IMG/VR virus record: IMGVR_UViG_3300046490_000039
Span: 1 to 64,000 of that record
Strand: one strand, 5' to 3'
DNA: 64,000 nucleotides
Origin: a virus
Taxonomy: Duplodnaviria > Caudoviricetes
This document shows, piece by piece, positions 15,905 through 39,988 of this stretch. The first letter of the stretch is position 1. The number at the start of each line of letters is the position of its first letter. Made by a program: the position numbers and the translations under genes. The notes beneath the pieces were generated by a model. That model did not search any database. It had not been told where the DNA came from and worked only from the letters and a program-made list of their open reading frames with translations.

Positions 15905-16230
15905 AGAAAGGTGGGTCTACACCTTGAAAGGGTGTCTATGTGTGTCCCCTGCACGGCTCCAGAACCTCTCTACGGTATAACGTGTGTGTGTGTGTGTGTG
16001 TATCACATACATATATACACACACACCTTTCACTGTAGGTAGAAGTAAGGAGCTGACGGCGACCTCACGCACAGTGAACTCAGATTCTCACCCTCTGTGA
16101 TAGCCCCTGGTCACAGAGTTGGGGACACATATAGACACACCCTTGTTTCGGGGGGTCACCACCCGTTCCTTATTCCACTAGGTCATATGACCTATATGAC
16201 ACCACACCTTTCTACAGCCTCAGGAAGATT
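15905..16230. other. Putative replication origin / divergent control region
   Basis: Noncoding, AT-richer, (GT)10 at 15982-16001, 18-bp inverted repeat 15932-15949/16121-16138, palindrome TAGGTCATATGACCTA 16179-16194; next to the helicase/Prim-Pol genes at the coding-strand switch. Confidence 0.6.
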
Positions 16231-19321: not shown

Positions 19322-19357
19322 TTGACATCGACACTCAGAGAGCGCATAATGAAGTTG
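19322..19357 (+). promoter_or_regulatory. Conserved promoter copy 2
   Basis: TTGACA-N17-CATAAT-GAAGTTG. Confidence 0.88.
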
Positions 19358-19378
19358 TACCCCCACGAAAGGCCCACC

Positions 19379-22023
19379 ATGTTCGTCAAAGCCCCCGCCC
19401 GCAAAGTTGACTCCGCCGACAAGAGCACCTGGCTCGACGTGCAGCCAGAGTGGATGCCCACCGAGGTCGAAGGCGATCCGGTGACCGGCTGGCGTGCCAT
19501 GACCGAGCGAGACGGTTCGGTCTCGTACGTGGTCGGGTACACGGTGGTCACGACGAGCGGCCTCTACGAGGCCGACAACGATGGCGTCTTCTACCGGGCC
19601 GCTGCGCTCCATCCGGTGGTCGCACGATGAGCGCCCGCAAGCCCTACCCTGACTGCGTGTACCTCGACGAGGTGTGGACGGTGGGCGTCTACCCTGGCAA
19701 GTGGGTCTGGACCTACTACGTCACGGTGGACAACGCCTTCCTGACGCCTCAGGTCGTTTCCGGTTCGACCTTCGCTCAGCGCACGTGGACCAAGAAAGCG
19801 GCGGCGCTCCGTGCCGCTACGAAGATGGCCGACGCTCTTGGCCTGAAGGTCCTGGTGCCTGATGTCTGACCCATTTCACATTCGCCGCATTAGCTGGCGT
19901 CCGCTCAAGGGCAGGGGCGAGTACCGCACCCTGCACATTGACATCGAGCCGACGTTCAGCGAGCGTGTCGTCCCGCCCGCTGGGGAGGACTACGCCTTCA
20001 ACGTGCAGCACTACCGCTCCAGCGTCGAGATCTCTGTCAGCCCTTCCGGGCGCAGCGTGCAGGTGTTCGTGGACGGGGTGAAAGTTCGATGATCCGCCTA
20101 GAGGAAGAGATCAAGTGGCTCCTGGTCAACTGGCTCGACATTCAGGAGAGGGCAGCCGAACAGAGTGCAGCGATCATCCTGGACAGCGAGGAGATGCGCC
20201 ACGTCCGCATGGCGCTCTACTCGATGCGCCCTGGTGGGTCGAACGATGACTCGGCTACCCAGTGCGGTACGTGGGACTGGCGTCACCTCCCCGAGAGTGT
20301 TATCGAATGGGCTAACACCACGCAGCCGGACGAGACCTACGCCGACCGCTACTGGAAGCCTTGACCCTGTGCCACCCCTGTGCCATACTGAAGACCTACC
20401 GAGAGGAAAGCAATGACCAAGAACTACGAGTGGAAACTGATCACGGGCGTGTCGCCGGTCGGCTCCGAGGTTGAGACCTGGGACTACGTGGAGACCGCTG
20501 ACGACTACCGTGAGCGCTACTACTTCAACGTGATCCCGGATGAGGCCGTGACCGAGCTGTACCGGATCGAGAGCACGAACGACATCGAGTTCCTGCTGTT
20601 CAGCCTCATCGTGCTGGGCACCGACCCGGAGACGGTCGTGTCGTTCAATGTCTCGGTCCCCGGCGAGTATTCGTTCCTGGCGCTCGGGTGGATGCGTGCC
20701 GCTGACGCTCACGCTCGGATCGTCTCCTGGCTGGAGGCAGTGAAGTGACTGCTCTCTACATCATCTCAGCCATCCTCTACGTGCTGGTCGGGTTCTTCTT
20801 CTCGGCCCTGGCGTACGGGGAGACTCAGCGGCCCGGAAAGACATGCGGCATCAAGGCACTGGACGCTGCGTTCGCTCTCATGCTGTTCGGCGTGCTCTGG
20901 CCGATCGGTGCAGCGTTCTTCCTGTTGGGTTATCTGGGCACTATGTGGATCGACTTCTCCAAGAAACTGAGGGACCGGAAATGACCGCCCAGACCGTTGA
21001 AGAGTACCGAGCGCTGAACGCTCGACTCACCCGTGACATCAACGCCGCCAACAGGCGAGCGTATCTGGCCAACGATCTGCTCGCCGGACAGGCGGACGAG
21101 GCGTTTGCTTCCTGGGACCGTGCGTGGCAGCTCAAGAGAGCGCTCGGGCAGGCGATCGAGCTGATCGAGGGACTGGCGTGGCAGCACGCTATGCCGGACG
21201 ACTTCTACGTCGGGCCGCTCGCAGCGCTGAAGCTGATCCACGAGGCGGACGGATGATGAGCAAAGAGATTGAGTTCAGGGACGGCGCTCTACACCTCACC
21301 ACCTGGGTCGGGCACGGGAGAGCCTTCGCCGCTACGCTCATGTGGTGTAGTGATCACTACGAACCGGTCTGGGTCTACAGCGACGGGAGCTACGGCTGTC
21401 CGTACGATCAGGTCGTCGGGTGCGATACACACCATACGATCGTGAACTTTCCGACCGATCCAGCACGGACGAGGGTAGAATCGCAACATGACTGAGATCT
21501 TGATCAAGGACGCCAGGGTGCGCCTGCCCTACTACGACGAGGGTGCCTACGTGCAGGTCTCGGGTGTTGGGGACTCACACTTCCTCGGATACCTACACGT
21601 CGAGGCTGACCCGCTGGACGATGGCGAGGCGTGGTACGATTCGTCGCTCTCGTGGGAGGCGTACGTGGCCCCGCCCGTCTACAAGGACTGGACGCTCCGC
21701 ACGATCGAGCGCATCCCCGTAGAGGGTGATCGCTATGTGCACGAGGACGGCCGTGTGCTCGTTTGGTACATGGCGGACAGCGGTGTGCCGCTGGACGTGA
21801 TCGTGGACGGAAAGGCGGTACCGGCGTGAGGTACTGCTACATTCGTGCCACGCACCCCTACGGCTACCGCAGCGGGCAGTGGGCGAAGATCACGGGCGTA
21901 GAGTGGTCGCTGGCGTATCAGCGCCCCGTGTACGCCGTGACGTTCGTGGACGGCATCACGGACTACTGGCCGGTCACTGACGGCAATGATCCATACGAGT
22001 TCTCCGCCGAGCCGAGGGCCTGA
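19379..22023 (+). CDS. Array of about 10 small hypothetical genes, including a membrane protein at 20745-20984
   Basis: Consecutive overlapping ORFs; internal promoter TTGACC-N17-CATACT at 20361. Confidence 0.6.
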
Positions 22024-25280: not shown

Positions 25281-25346
25281 GAAATAACCCTGTGACCAGG
25301 GACGATGCACTTGACTTTCCCACCCGGAAGGCGCATAATGAAGTTG
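25281..25346 (+). promoter_or_regulatory. Conserved promoter copy 3 with upstream 21-bp element
   Basis: GAAATAACCCTGTGACCAGGG; TTGACT(25311)-N17-CATAAT-GAAGTTG. Confidence 0.85.
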
Positions 25347-35905: not shown

Positions 35906-36556
35906 AGGCCAAGGGCGTAGCACTCCGGGCGCTCCAGCAATTTGTGTACGGTCAAGACGACCGCATCTCCGCCCTGGAGGGGCGAATCGACGAGCTGGCC
36001 AACACACTGACCTTTGCGCTGGCCCGCCTCTCTTCCGCCGAGGCCGAGCTGCTGAGGCACAAGAGCACGCCCGCCCCGTACACTTCACCGACCATCTGGC
36101 CGAACACCCCGTGGGTCTCCCCCACCATCTGGTCCAGCACCGGGCTGCCGCTCAACGTGTGCATCTTCGGCTCCAGCCCAGACTCACCGGAAGACCTTGC
36201 CCGCAGGGTGCAAGAGACCTACGTCCAAATCAAGCACCGAAGGAAGCCATGAAGCCTATCGACATCGCAGACGATCTGCGCCCGCTGATCGACCACATCA
36301 ACCGGGTCAACGGGTCCAACCTCGTGCTCACCGTGGCCGACAACGAGGTCCTCGTTGAGGAGCACGACGTACCGCTCGTGATCATCGAGAACGTGCACGA
36401 CTCGATCGAGGCCCACACGGCCGTCTACAAGTCGCTCCACCTCTGGGGGCTGACGGTCTAGGATCTCCAGGAAAGTTGCGTGCCGCAGTCTTGTGCAAGC
36501 ACGGCCAGCCCGTGAGCGAGAGTGGAAGCTGTGAACCTCTCGGCGCAACTTTCTTG

Positions 36557-36623
36557 GAAATAACCCTCTGACCAGGGGGTTTGTCGCTTGACATTCTGAT
36601 CGGGAAGGCGCATAATGAAGTTG
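36557..36623 (+). promoter_or_regulatory. Conserved promoter copy 6 with upstream 21-bp element
   Basis: GAAATAACCCTCTGACCAGGG; TTGACA(36588)-N17-CATAAT-GAAGTTG. Confidence 0.88.
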
Positions 36624-36927
36624 TGCCGCTGGGAAGCGTCACGGAGGACCTTGACAACTGAAGAGCGATGCAGAGCGCACGGCCCCACGAGGTGCCCACG
36701 CAAGTACGACAATGAAGCGCCCTACGGCACATAAGCCCGGAGAGACACTACTCTTCTCTCCACGGTGAGCGGTGTTCAATGAAGGTGGTGGAGTCCGAAC
36801 GGTAAGTGGAGCGAAGAGGGAGTCAGCGACGAAGCAAGTAGCGGAGGGTAACCCGGCGTGGCCACAATGGGGGAGAGGAAGCGAAAGCGATCGGCTTGCC
36901 GTGAGTTCTGCACTGCTCTTCAGGTTG
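36623..36927 (+). ncRNA. Candidate ~300-nt structured ncRNA enclosed by a 26-bp stalk
   Basis: 36658-36683 pairs with 36898-36923 (2 G-U, 2 mismatches); boxA-like CTTGACAACTGAA; internal GNRA hairpins; no plus-strand ORF in the track. Confidence 0.7.
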
Positions 36928-36990
36928 ACTATGTGACACCCCTCTGCTAGTCTGATCTCGTACCGCCGACCGAAAGGCCCACCACCCACC

Positions 36991-38856
36991 ATGATCATCA
37001 CCGAGAAGGTCTCCCCCAAGATCAACACCATTGAGGGCGAGAGCCAAGTGTTCCGTATCGCCACGAACGCCAAGGCGTTCCGTGTGCTGGTCGACGGCAT
37101 TTACTCGGACAAGATCGGCTCGATCGTCCGAGAGCTGCTGAGCAACGCCTGGGACGCACACGCTCGACGTGGCGACCTGGACCTGCCCTTTGAGGTCCGC
37201 CTCCCCAACGCCCTGAACCCGACCTTCTCGGTCCGTGACTACGGCTGCTCGATGGAGCACGAGTTCGTGCTGCGAAGCTACTCGACCCTGTTTGAGTCGA
37301 GCAAGGGTGACTCCAACACGGAGGTCGGTGCGTTCGGTCTGGGTGCCAAGTCGTTCCTGTCTTACACTGACGCCTGCACCCTGGTGTGCTGGCTCGACGG
37401 TGAGGTCCGCTCGTACTCGATCGCTCTCAACGATGACGCCGTGCCCGAGGTGAAGCTGGTGCACCGTGCACCGAGCGACGAGCCTCAGGGCGTGGAGGTC
37501 ACCTTCGCCGTAGCGCAGGGCGACTTCCAGTTGTTCCGTCGTGCCGCCGAGACCTGCTCCTACGGGTTCGACGTGCCGCCGAACTTCGTCGGCAACGAGA
37601 TCACCCCCCTGACCCCGGTGTTCACCGGCACCGGGTGGCGTGTCTACGACAGCCGGATCTCCAACATCGACTCGCAGGTGATCGTCCGTCAGGGCTGCGC
37701 CGTCTACCCGACGAACCGCTACAACTACAACACGAACCTCCCCCACAACTACGTGGTGGTCGTCGATGCGCCAATCGGCACCATCGGCGTGACCGCCAGC
37801 CGTGAGGCGCTCGCTCTCAGCCCCGAGCAGGGCGACCAGCTCCGCTACCGAGTGACGGCCGCCGTCCTGGAGCTGAACGGGCAGGTGCAGGAACAGTACC
37901 GTGCGCTCACCACCCCGATCGCCAAGGCCCGCTTCGCCTACGCCAACAGCTCGCTGCTCGGCCGTGGCGACTTCCCGACCTGGGTGAAGCTTCCGTTCTC
38001 GGTCAACAAGTGGGACGCCGGAGCGCTGGCACCGTACGACGTGTTCAACGTCTCGTACCTCGACAAGATCCTGGTCATCCACGATGACGGCACCCCGATC
38101 AAGCGCCGGACGCTTCGTCTCCGCTCGCTCGTGAAGCAGGGGCGCAAGAGCGTGTACCTGGTCACCAGCTCGGCTGAAGTGCAGAAGATCCGGACCCTAC
38201 TCGACCTGAGCGCTGGCCAGGTCGTCAAGATCGAAGCCATCCCCGACGTGCACGTGAACCGCAGTGGCGGTGGCACGGCCGCACCGAAGAAGGTCGTCAC
38301 GAACGACGTGGTGTGGGCCAACAGTAATCGCCAGGCAGCGTGGGCCGGAGAGGTCCTCACCTGGAACCGCAGGACCGAGCACGTCGGCCGCTTCTACGGG
38401 GCTTCGCTGGGCTGGACCAACAACGTGATCCACGAGGCGTCGAACGGCAAGCCGATCCTGTACCTGACCGTGAACGAGATGACCGCCGCACTCAAGGCCG
38501 GTCGGATCACCGAGGACATGCGCCTCGACAACGTGATCAAGCGGGCGCTCGGTGCCGCCAAGATGGAGGACACGCTCTACTCCAACTTGGTCCACACGAT
38601 GATCGGCAACCGGACCTATCAGCAGTTCGTCCGAGACGAGATGGTGAAGCGGTCGGGCGTCTCCCTGAAGCAGGAATCGCTCCCGGCAGCCGAACTCTTC
38701 GGCCGGTTCTTTCCCGAGCGCAGCCACGCCATCAACAAGCGGGCCGAGGACACGGTGCAGAAGTTGGCCGGTCAGTTCCCGCTTCTCTTCGGCTACGACC
38801 GCAACGCCGCCGAGGCCTACATCAAGATGTGCGATAAGACTGGACAGAAGGTCTAG
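36991..38856 (+). CDS. rIIA: rIIA-like protein (GHKL ATPase N-terminus)
   Basis: IYSDK..IVRELLSNAWDAH, VRDYG, S.K..SN..G.FGLGAKS, ASREAL; followed by rIIB. Confidence 0.85.
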   Translation: MIITEKVSPKINTIEGESQVFRIATNAKAFRVLVDGIYSDKIGSIVRELLSNAWDAHARRGDLDLPFEVRLPNALNPTFSVRDYGCSMEHEFVLRSYSTLFESSKGDSNTEVGAFGLGAKSFLSYTDACTLVCWLDGEVRSYSIALNDDAVPEVKLVHRAPSDEPQGVEVTFAVAQGDFQLFRRAAETCSYGFDVPPNFVGNEITPLTPVFTGTGWRVYDSRISNIDSQVIVRQGCAVYPTNRYNYNTNLPHNYVVVVDAPIGTIGVTASREALALSPEQGDQLRYRVTAAVLELNGQVQEQYRALTTPIAKARFAYANSSLLGRGDFPTWVKLPFSVNKWDAGALAPYDVFNVSYLDKILVIHDDGTPIKRRTLRLRSLVKQGRKSVYLVTSSAEVQKIRTLLDLSAGQVVKIEAIPDVHVNRSGGGTAAPKKVVTNDVVWANSNRQAAWAGEVLTWNRRTEHVGRFYGASLGWTNNVIHEASNGKPILYLTVNEMTAALKAGRITEDMRLDNVIKRALGAAKMEDTLYSNLVHTMIGNRTYQQFVRDEMVKRSGVSLKQESLPAAELFGRFFPERSHAINKRAEDTVQKLAGQFPLLFGYDRNAAEAYIKMCDKTGQKV

Positions 38857-38908
38857 TCCCGTGCTACAATCAAACCGCAAGCCCAACCCGACCCAGGAGG
38901 TCACCACC

Positions 38909-39988
38909 ATGTTCACTCCCTTCCCCTACAACCTCTCGGATACGAGCCTCACGTTCTACGTGGACGGCAAGCCGAATCAGGTCCTTCGGGACCACCCGTT
39001 CTTCGACGAGATCGTGGCCGCAGTAGAGGCCGGAGATCCCGAAGCCGTCGAGCTGGCCAAGCCCGCAGTCAAGATGGCCGCAGCCATCAACGGCGCTGTC
39101 AACGACAGTGACGCAACCAAGTGGTTCCGTCGAGCAGCCGGTGAGATCAAGGTGACCGAGTGGGGCGTGACCTTCAACGGTCAGTCGCTCCACGGGCACG
39201 TGGTCGACCGTCTCATGGACGTGCTCAAGTCCGGCCTGAACATCGCACCGTGGGTGCACTTCGTCGGCAAGCTTCAGCGGAACCCGTCGAGCACGAGCCG
39301 TGACGAGCTGTACCTGTGGCTGGAGAAGTCCGGCATGCCGATCACCCCTGACGGCGACTTCCTCGCCTACAAGCGGGTGCGCCCCAGCTACAAGGACATC
39401 CACTCGGGCAAGTTCGACAACTCGGTCGGCAACGTCGTCGAGATGTCCCGCCTGGACGTGGACGACGATCGCCGTCGCACCTGCTCGGCCGGTCTCCACT
39501 TCTGCTCCAAGGACTACCTGCCCAACTTCAGCAGCAGCGGTGACAGTGACCACGTGATGGTCGTCAAGATCAACCCCGCCGACGTGGTGTCGATCCCCGC
39601 CGACTACAACGACGCCAAGGGTCGCACCTGGCGCTACGAGGTGGTCGGTGAGATCAGCCTGGAGGATGCGGGCCTCAACGTGTGGGGTCCGGTCTCGTCC
39701 GACTACGGCAATGACGATCCCTACGACTGGGATGACTGGAACTACGGTGACCCCGGTGATCTCGACGACACCCTCGACGATGATGATCCCGCCGACCGCC
39801 AGACGATCGGTGAGGTGTTCGCCGCCTACGCCAAGAAGTTCGGCGTGACCGCCTCCAAGGAAGGCCCCGAGCGTGAGGTGCGCCTCCTGCGTGCACGCTA
39901 CGTGCTCGGTGTCGGCCCGAGCGGCCTGGCCTCGTTCTCTGACCTCACGATCAGCGAGGCTGACGCACTCGTTACCGCCTGGAGCTAG
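38909..39988 (+). CDS. rIIB: rIIB-like protein
   Basis: NPS....ELY.WL, PITPDG.FLAYKRV, D.HSG.FDNS.G, TCSAGLH, VKINPADVVSIP.DY. Confidence 0.88.
   Translation: MFTPFPYNLSDTSLTFYVDGKPNQVLRDHPFFDEIVAAVEAGDPEAVELAKPAVKMAAAINGAVNDSDATKWFRRAAGEIKVTEWGVTFNGQSLHGHVVDRLMDVLKSGLNIAPWVHFVGKLQRNPSSTSRDELYLWLEKSGMPITPDGDFLAYKRVRPSYKDIHSGKFDNSVGNVVEMSRLDVDDDRRRTCSAGLHFCSKDYLPNFSSSGDSDHVMVVKINPADVVSIPADYNDAKGRTWRYEVVGEISLEDAGLNVWGPVSSDYGNDDPYDWDDWNYGDPGDLDDTLDDDDPADRQTIGEVFAAYAKKFGVTASKEGPEREVRLLRARYVLGVGPSGLASFSDLTISEADALVTAWS

Follow-up and report, generated by a model that had tools for sequence, protein, structure and literature searches.

A boxA-like motif and a long-range helix, in the order and register of ribosomal RNA operon leaders, upstream of rIIA in a Caudoviricetes virus record

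The window analyzed here, a stretch of 64 kb, is the first part of a 97.9-kb IMG/VR virus record (IMGVR_UViG_3300046490_000039; Caudoviricetes) that is estimated to be 88% complete. Its plus strand, on which all features described below lie unless otherwise stated, carries rIIA (36991–38856) and, in the same operon, rIIB (38861–39988); on the 3′ side of this pair are genes for a family-A DNA polymerase and then a SNF2 helicase. Genes for a PP2C-type phosphatase, a MazG-like enzyme, and ClpP lie 5′ of the element that is the subject of this study. No close relative of the phage was found among cultured phages; the nearest matches to its family-A polymerase are polymerases of Arthrobacter phages, at merely 33% identity. 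The stop codon of the upstream 116-aa gene is followed immediately by a stem-loop domain (36463–36561) whose arms, 36463–36480 and 36544–36561, pair at 16 of 18 positions and enclose 63 nt; a terminator-like hairpin comes next. This domain belongs to the 3′ end of the upstream transcript, outside the element proper, and it may be a stabilizing 3′ structure. The terminator-like hairpin itself (36562–36585) has an 8-bp stem spanning 36562–36581 and a GACC loop, and runs into UUUGU; it probably insulates the promoter that follows, P1, from upstream transcription. The same hairpin is also found ahead of a second copy of this promoter at 25311, whose 17-mer (see below) is at 25330.

P1 (TTGACA-N17-CATAAT; 36588–36616) agrees with the consensus at 11 of 12 positions and is one of five near-identical copies. 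The 17-mer GGCGCATAATGAAGTTG, which covers its −10 region and the bases immediately after, occurs five times on the plus strand of the genome, against 0.07 expected, at 19341, 25330, 26032, 31563, and 36607; these copies are spread through the early region, and the 17-mer has no match in IMG/VR. Together they form a family of promoter cassettes, each consisting of TTGACA-N17-CATAAT-GAAGTTG, then a 5′ hairpin, and then a Shine–Dalgarno sequence. In the other four cassettes, the small hairpin and Shine–Dalgarno sequence lead into a gene that begins within 25–45 nt, whereas the cassette at 36607 retains GGAGGA with no start codon after it. The P1 transcript would be expected to start near 36623. 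Its 5′ leader (36624–36648) contains the small hairpin (GCUGGGAAGC) and the Shine–Dalgarno-like GGAGGA (36643–36648) that are common to the other cassettes.

The first operon reached from P1 is rIIA–rIIB, which is also served by a second promoter, P2 (TTGACT-N17-TAGTCT; 36925–36953). P2 is in register with the rIIA promoter of a relative (L007, TTGACA-N17-CATACT), whose rIIA is 47% identical to that of the window; the two align base for base, including the following GATCT and the distance to the start codon. The boxA-containing unit described below therefore seems to have been added upstream of an older, ancestral promoter of rIIA. A preliminary description, made from the letters of the window, had named both a near-consensus promoter at 36588 and a separate rIIA promoter at 36925; each is present, the first backed by its sister copies and the second by the alignment to this one relative. 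The ribosome-binding region and start of rIIA occupy 36972–36993, with GAAAGG at 36972–36977 and the start codon at 36991. As a side observation, the initiation context GAAAGGCCCACC stands before rIIA (36972–36990), before the gene that follows the 19341 promoter (19375–19390), and also in the genome of the relative L007 (G003:C1:8111–8129).

Approximately 375 nt downstream of P1 carry no coding signal. Third-position GC is flat at 0.5–0.7 across 36460–36980, compared with 0.85–0.95 in the flanking genes, and the region after P1 is the longest such non-coding stretch in the window. Three small frames (36615, 36651, and 36772) were considered and rejected as genes, having neither family matches nor a third-position GC signal; the earlier claim that the promoter fires into a region free of genes thus agrees with both lines of evidence. 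Within this region, an untranslated interior of 214 nt (36684–36897) is enclosed by the two strands of a long-range helix. Its composition is extreme: among all 138-nt plus-strand windows of the genome, 36760–36897 has the highest purine content (69%) and, at 18% C, nearly the lowest C content. Its folding is not, since the interior is no more stable than shuffled sequences (z +0.30) and shows no sign of selected structure; the excess stability of the whole element (z −3.1) is due entirely to the long helix. The interior helices and GNRA tetraloops that had been listed for this segment do exist as letters, but the same statistic lends them no support.

The element had been described as not recognizable as tRNA, tmRNA, or RNase P RNA, and it matched no RNA family in the searches made. 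A scan against Rfam 15 gave no match at gathering thresholds and, at E values up to 10, only two chance matches to miRNA families, and ARAGORN found no tRNA or tmRNA in the element. Retron msr–msd RNA and bacterial Y RNA were also tried as candidates and rejected, there being no match to RVT_1 or TROVE in the 97.9-kb record (88% complete). The interior has no similarity to rRNA operon (rrn) leaders or spacers; recent capture from any sampled lineage is therefore unsupported.

Between the 5′ leader and the interior is a boxA-like 18-mer, CCTTGACAACTGAAGAGC (36649–36666), which begins 27 nt after the predicted P1 start and 341 nt before the start codon of rIIA, and which is preceded by small hairpins. 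The preliminary description had pointed to CCTTGACAACTGAAGAG, present at 36649–36665, as resembling the boxA and processing-stem sequence of bacterial rrn operons, and comparison with rrn leaders bears this out. Of 120 loci fetched with an actinobacterial-type 16S 5′ end, 84 extended far enough upstream for comparison; in nearly every case, the phage 16-mer CTTGACAACTGAAGAG aligned best to one and the same element, ~200 nt upstream of 16S. This element, the rrn boxA region, reads for example CTTGAGAACTCAACAG (Streptomyces), TTTGAGAACTCAATAG (mycobacteria), or CTTGAAAACGGAAGAG (Acidimicrobiia). With a profile built solely from 45 distinct rrn blocks, the phage site ranks first among 195,774 positions, scoring 17.9 bits against 10.4 for the runner-up (both strands; the profile is actinobacterial). 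Calculated exactly, the tail probability of this score is 1e-7 at any one position, which gives an E value of about 0.02 per genome; the core does contain TTGACA, however, and to that extent the match coincides with a generic −35 hexamer. The phage site is also the sole match in the genome to the pattern YTTGANAACTNNANAG.

Natural rrn operons contain the same or nearly the same sequence. The 18-mer CCTTGACAACTGAAGAGC was found exactly once in 401 Actinomycetota genomes, where it is the boxA ahead of 23S, in the spacer, of one genome (G366; 18/18 positions); a version matching at 17/18 positions is the 16S-leader boxA of two others (G143 and G170). Of the 401 genomes, 14 are flagged as unpublished; these do not include G366, G143, or G170, and none of the present conclusions depends on them. 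Two genomes with a matching boxA (G170 and G322) have 16S sequences just 86–89% identical to those of the named loci. In the four bases immediately 5′ of the core, the phage reads GGAC, against GYTS in actinobacterial leaders and GCAC in spacers. It departs from the spacer type at one base and from the leader type at two, and binding of Nus factors cannot be taken for granted. Published reference points include the E. coli boxA sequence UGCUCUUUAACA and the NusB-binding B. subtilis sequence AUGAUCUUUGAAA (PMC13753749), the E. coli consensus GYTCTTTAANA (PMC5725501), and the mycobacterial CL2 motif, described as a putative BoxA (PMC10218544). Judged by its sequence, the phage motif is a bona fide host-type boxA.

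The helix that encloses the interior begins within this motif. Its core strands, 36658–36683 and 36898–36923 (extended strands 36641–36690 and 36890–36947), contain 22 Watson–Crick pairs, 2 G–U pairs, and 2 mismatches over 26 positions; the long pairing proposed at these positions is thus present, with 24 of 26 positions paired. It is the only inverted repeat in the 97.9-kb genome to match at ≥22 of 26 positions within 700 nt, where Markov simulations predict 0.13. If one bulged G is allowed, the helix grows to 39 pairs, 36 of them Watson–Crick, with the extension running through CAAC/GUUG and through GGAGGA (36643–36648)/CCCCUCU (36941–36947). The duplex has a z score of −4.5, and the predicted pairing probability is 0.64–0.9 in six of eight transcript windows; in the other two, the helix is outcompeted by pairings with rIIA coding sequence, which ribosomes would break in the cell. 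The earlier argument that G–U pairs allow the helix on the plus strand only proved marginal: 24 of 26 positions pair on the plus strand and 23 of 26 on the minus strand, where the A–C mismatch becomes U–G, and both strands fold. Cleavage by RNase III is a prediction from the length and quality of the duplex.

This arrangement can be compared directly with rrn operons. In all 24 of the distinct actinobacterial-type operons analyzed, the boxA block supplies the 5′ strand of a helix whose other strand lies in the spacer that follows 16S. These helices comprise the boxA block and the next 15–20 nt, measure 25–30 bp, and have their partner strand 70–250 nt past the 3′ end of 16S; they have z scores of −3 to −12 and many compensatory changes among the 24 operons. 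Examples are CTCAACAGCGTGCC with GGCACGCTGTTGGG, and CGGAAGAGACG with CGTCTCTTCCG. They correspond to the 16S leader–trailer helix known from enterobacteria (PMC10250234). Within the motif, the first paired position of the phage helix is the one seen in every one of the 24 operons. Two independently rare features, boxA (0.02 expected per genome) and the helix (0.13 expected), thus adjoin here just as they do in an rrn leader, with the same order and register; the description of the locus as an rrn-operon-like leader with a processing stalk is therefore strongly supported. Like actinobacterial rrn leaders, the phage element has a promoter, a short hairpin, boxA, and a helix of 25–40 bp whose 5′ strand begins at boxA. 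The differences lie in what surrounds these parts: the rrn helix encloses ~1.5 kb of 16S plus the remainder of the leader, whereas the phage helix encloses 214 nt with no similarity to rRNA; the phage has no second boxA after the helix, as rrn operons do; and the phage element sits ahead of protein-coding genes, which rrn leaders do not.

Relatives of the window offer limited comparison. The two closest rIIA relatives (P0002 and P0003, from Logan/ENA) share 64–65% identity. In the nearest readable relatives, at 47–52%, the spacer is absent altogether, and in two loci (L005 and L006) rIIA is coupled directly to the preceding gene. Conservation does not extend to the gene 5′ of rIIA in L005 or L007, and consequently no precise insertion site can be defined. 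The boxA pattern was not found in the relatives' records, which are fragments and hence not proof of absence. No homolog of the element was recovered from 50,697 phage records (blastn), from 49 rIIA loci (blastn and nhmmer), or from the whole records of five relatives, and searches of five Actinomycetota genomes gave chance matches only. A search for a close relative with rIIA likewise found none.

The boxA motif itself, in contrast to the element, recurs in many phages. A blastn search with a 46-nt Streptomyces rrn boxA block matched 102 Streptomyces phages, and the mycobacterial block matched 35 Mycobacterium and 20 Arthrobacter phages. Eight of these were opened (L229–L236): Streptomyces phages Saftant, Joe, FlowerPower, GiJojo, and Keanu; Mycobacterium phages PegLeg and Phlei; and Arthrobacter phage Amigo. 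In all eight, boxA is found within a leader that carries no annotation, 28–500 nt ahead of the first gene of the next operon and on that operon's strand. Each of five whole cultured-phage genomes contains the pattern YTTGARAACTNNAYAG a single time, with zero control matches, and the boxA variant of the cultured phages matches the host genus. Six cultured phages with a long leader have no significant partner strand for boxA (z 0.1 to 0.6); the motif thus appears to be kept for itself, which argues for a boxA function over mere helix formation. Beyond boxA, these cultured actinophages have no sequence similarity to the window. No publication linking boxA to actinophages was found, although coverage of subscription journals was thin. 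In Saftant, 57 nt after boxA, ARAGORN reports an unannotated 92-nt tRNA-Arg(CCU)-like gene (L229:738–829) that has both a T-arm and an acceptor end; the Rfam scan gave no tRNA at these positions, and the call may represent a tRNA-like element or a false positive.

Uncultured phages show a similar pattern. In IMG/VR, 18 of 20 matches to CCTTGACAACTGAANAGC have T at the free position. This T variant carries stop codons in all three forward frames, and 17 of 18 distinct contexts lie outside forward reading frames. The 18-mer CCTTGACAACTGAATAGC is present in IMG/VR contigs L237–L256, which range from 34 to 65% GC, often 26–120 nt before an open reading frame, and it appears to be a boxA-type leader motif that is common among uncultured phages. 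One of these contigs (L256; IMGVR_UViG_3300034980_000386, minus strand 1–408), from an unrelated phage with a GC content of 52%, resembles the element in combining boxA with a ~28-bp helix that begins inside boxA and spans ~300 nt (z −6.9); a −10-like TATAAT lies 14 nt before its boxA. Unlike that of the element, its helix encloses an 86-aa cysteine-rich ORF with its own Shine–Dalgarno sequence, and past the 3′ strand comes a second boxA-like motif (GTTCTTTGACAATTTAATAC), ~60 nt before the contig ends.

Taken as sequence, the locus thus presents a strong promoter of a repeated family, a host-type boxA, and a long-range helix of 26–39 bp that starts at boxA. Processive antitermination through boxA is textbook knowledge for phage lambda and for rRNA operons; to our knowledge, actinobacterial phages are not known to use it. 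We consider it somewhat better than an even chance, at a probability of roughly 0.55, that this stretch imitates the host rRNA-operon leader and provides both Rho-resistant transcription and RNase III processing. Under this reading, boxA would bind the host NusB–NusE(S10) complex as it emerges from the polymerase, and other Nus factors would join; this loading would give fast, Rho-resistant elongation across RNA that is unprotected by ribosomes. The extreme C-poverty of the interior would work in the same direction by offering poor Rho-loading sites. The tethered 5′ strand of the helix would then pair with the 3′ strand as soon as the latter is made, as has been proposed for pre-16S rRNA, and host RNase III would cut the helix to free an RNA of 220–270 nt. 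The rIIA–rIIB message would keep a short processed leader after this cut, with ancestral P2 serving rIIA directly. The behavior of boxA, NusB, and leader–trailer helices that underlies such a mechanism has been described previously (PMC13753749; PMC10250234; PMC5725501). No RNase III or NusB gene was found in the phage record; host factors would therefore be needed.

The closest phage parallel is the lambda nutL–N leader, which likewise is a phage early leader with boxA a few hundred nucleotides before the first gene and with a long RNase III-type helix between boxA and that gene (PMC5725501; PMC10250234). However, lambda needs its own N protein acting on boxB, whereas the motif of the window is of the host rrn type, a type that works in rrn operons with host factors alone, and the hosts are unrelated. 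The element is perhaps best classed as a new arrangement of known kinds of parts, boxA complexes and a leader–trailer helix, which here appear to be phage-borne around a short non-ribosomal RNA. A phage that carries both a host-type boxA and a helix of the kind that brackets 16S points to direct use of the host machinery for rRNA transcription and maturation, with no N protein. This idea is testable in tractable systems, such as PegLeg in M. smegmatis and Joe in S. coelicolor. The hosts of uncultured phages might also be predicted from the boxA variant that they carry, and a boxA leader of this type could become a portable anti-Rho leader for actinobacterial expression constructs.

A bolder version of the imitation of an rRNA leader can be proposed only tentatively, and we regard it as rather unlikely. 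The element would constitute a pseudo-pre-rRNA cassette whose RNase III-excised, extremely purine-rich RNA of 214–270 nt acts in trans, and host-matched boxA would be a general device of actinophage early transcription, used by many other phages as well. Targets for such an RNA, equally tentative, might include Nus factors or RNase III, which it could soak up, or the pyrimidine-rich 3′ end of 16S rRNA.

It is less likely, although with some precedent, that the element is a regulatory 5′ leader and nothing more, in which Nus factors recruited by boxA repress or tune the translation of rIIA, or promote Rho termination, through an RNA loop, with no stable RNA product of any importance. The preliminary description had judged the region unlikely to be only a leader. 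The existence of a separate P2 favors that judgment, since rIIA retains a downstream promoter and control from P1 would touch only some of its messages. However, nothing terminates transcription between the element and rIIA, which makes the region, whatever else it may be, a leader of the rIIA–rIIB operon as well. The lambda nutL–N leader and E. coli suhB are precedents for leader function (PMC5725501). At suhB and other predicted sites, as in the window, boxA lies in a non-rRNA 5′ region, and a non-ribosomal boxA in an untranslated 5′ region does recruit Nus factors (PMC5725501). The suhB-type boxA, however, is within ~50 nt of the start codon and represses translation, whereas that of the window is 341 nt away and is joined to a long-range helix. 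An RNA loop of the required kind can be drawn: GGUGGUGG, a run of purines at 36784, could base-pair with CCACCACC, which immediately precedes the start codon of rIIA, and the minimum free energy structure of 36622–37010 uses pairings of this kind. This alternative fold is nevertheless no better than shuffled sequences (z +0.27), and repression by such a loop would not need a helix of 26–39 bp in rrn register.

Doubtful to a slightly greater degree is the notion of a functionless relic, either a captured piece of a host rrn leader and spacer, or what remains of a gene downstream of a duplicated promoter cassette. The Shine–Dalgarno sequence that the cassette keeps does lack a start codon behind it, the interior is no more structured than shuffled sequence, and the element is missing from readable relatives, all of which a relic would explain. 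On the other hand, phage genomes quickly shed useless DNA. The interior retains no residual codon periodicity and is unlike rrn leaders and spacers. Furthermore, the helix is nearly intact, with 36 of its 39 pairs Watson–Crick, and boxA motifs recur in the leaders of many phages.

We think it improbable that the element is an RNA-primed (R-loop) origin of replication, at which a purine-rich transcript hybridized to the C-rich template would prime DNA synthesis. The purine-rich and C-poor composition of 36760–36897, the most purine-rich plus-strand window of the genome, fits this idea equally as well as it fits resistance to Rho. The element is also upstream of a replication module, the family-A polymerase and SNF2 helicase. 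The models for such an origin are ColE1 RNA II and, as an actinophage precedent, the RNA-based origins of some cluster A mycobacteriophage prophages, those of the non-RepA kind; with these the element shares a promoter-driven non-coding RNA of a few hundred nucleotides and, with the cluster A type, a position beside maintenance or replication genes in an actinophage (PMC7157519). Those RNA-based origins, however, lie beside parABS and have no reported boxA, whereas the window has no skew or iteron evidence at this locus: the minimum of cumulative GC skew is elsewhere, near 60 kb, and neither iterons nor an AT-rich unwinding segment was found. An R-loop origin would also leave boxA and the rrn-register helix unexplained.

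The weakest rival, and a highly improbable one, is an element acting at the DNA level, either a miniature transposable element with 26-bp terminal repeats or a 266-bp invertible switch for the phage serine recombinase: TTGAC flanks the arms on both sides and the genome has a 195-aa resolvase/invertase-type frame, but the upstream TTGAC belongs to boxA and the downstream copy to the −35 hexamer of P2, the arms lack the internal dyad of hix/gix sites and enclose no promoter, and the arm sequence occurs only once in the genome, is absent from IMG/VR and from 185,579 species genomes, and gave only five chance matches, with no flanking similarity, in JGI metagenomes.

Two further observations concern other parts of the window. 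No tyrosine integrase was found in the record; the 195-aa open frame mentioned above (minus strand, 1756–2163) belongs to the small serine recombinase (resolvase/invertase) family, at 122 bits, and lies near the inverted repeats 1149–1171/1330–1352 and 2250–2270/2396–2416. Finally, a (GT)n/(AC)n palindrome at 15970–16038 is nested in an 18-bp inverted repeat of 94% identity (15932–15949/16121–16138), in a region of lower GC.
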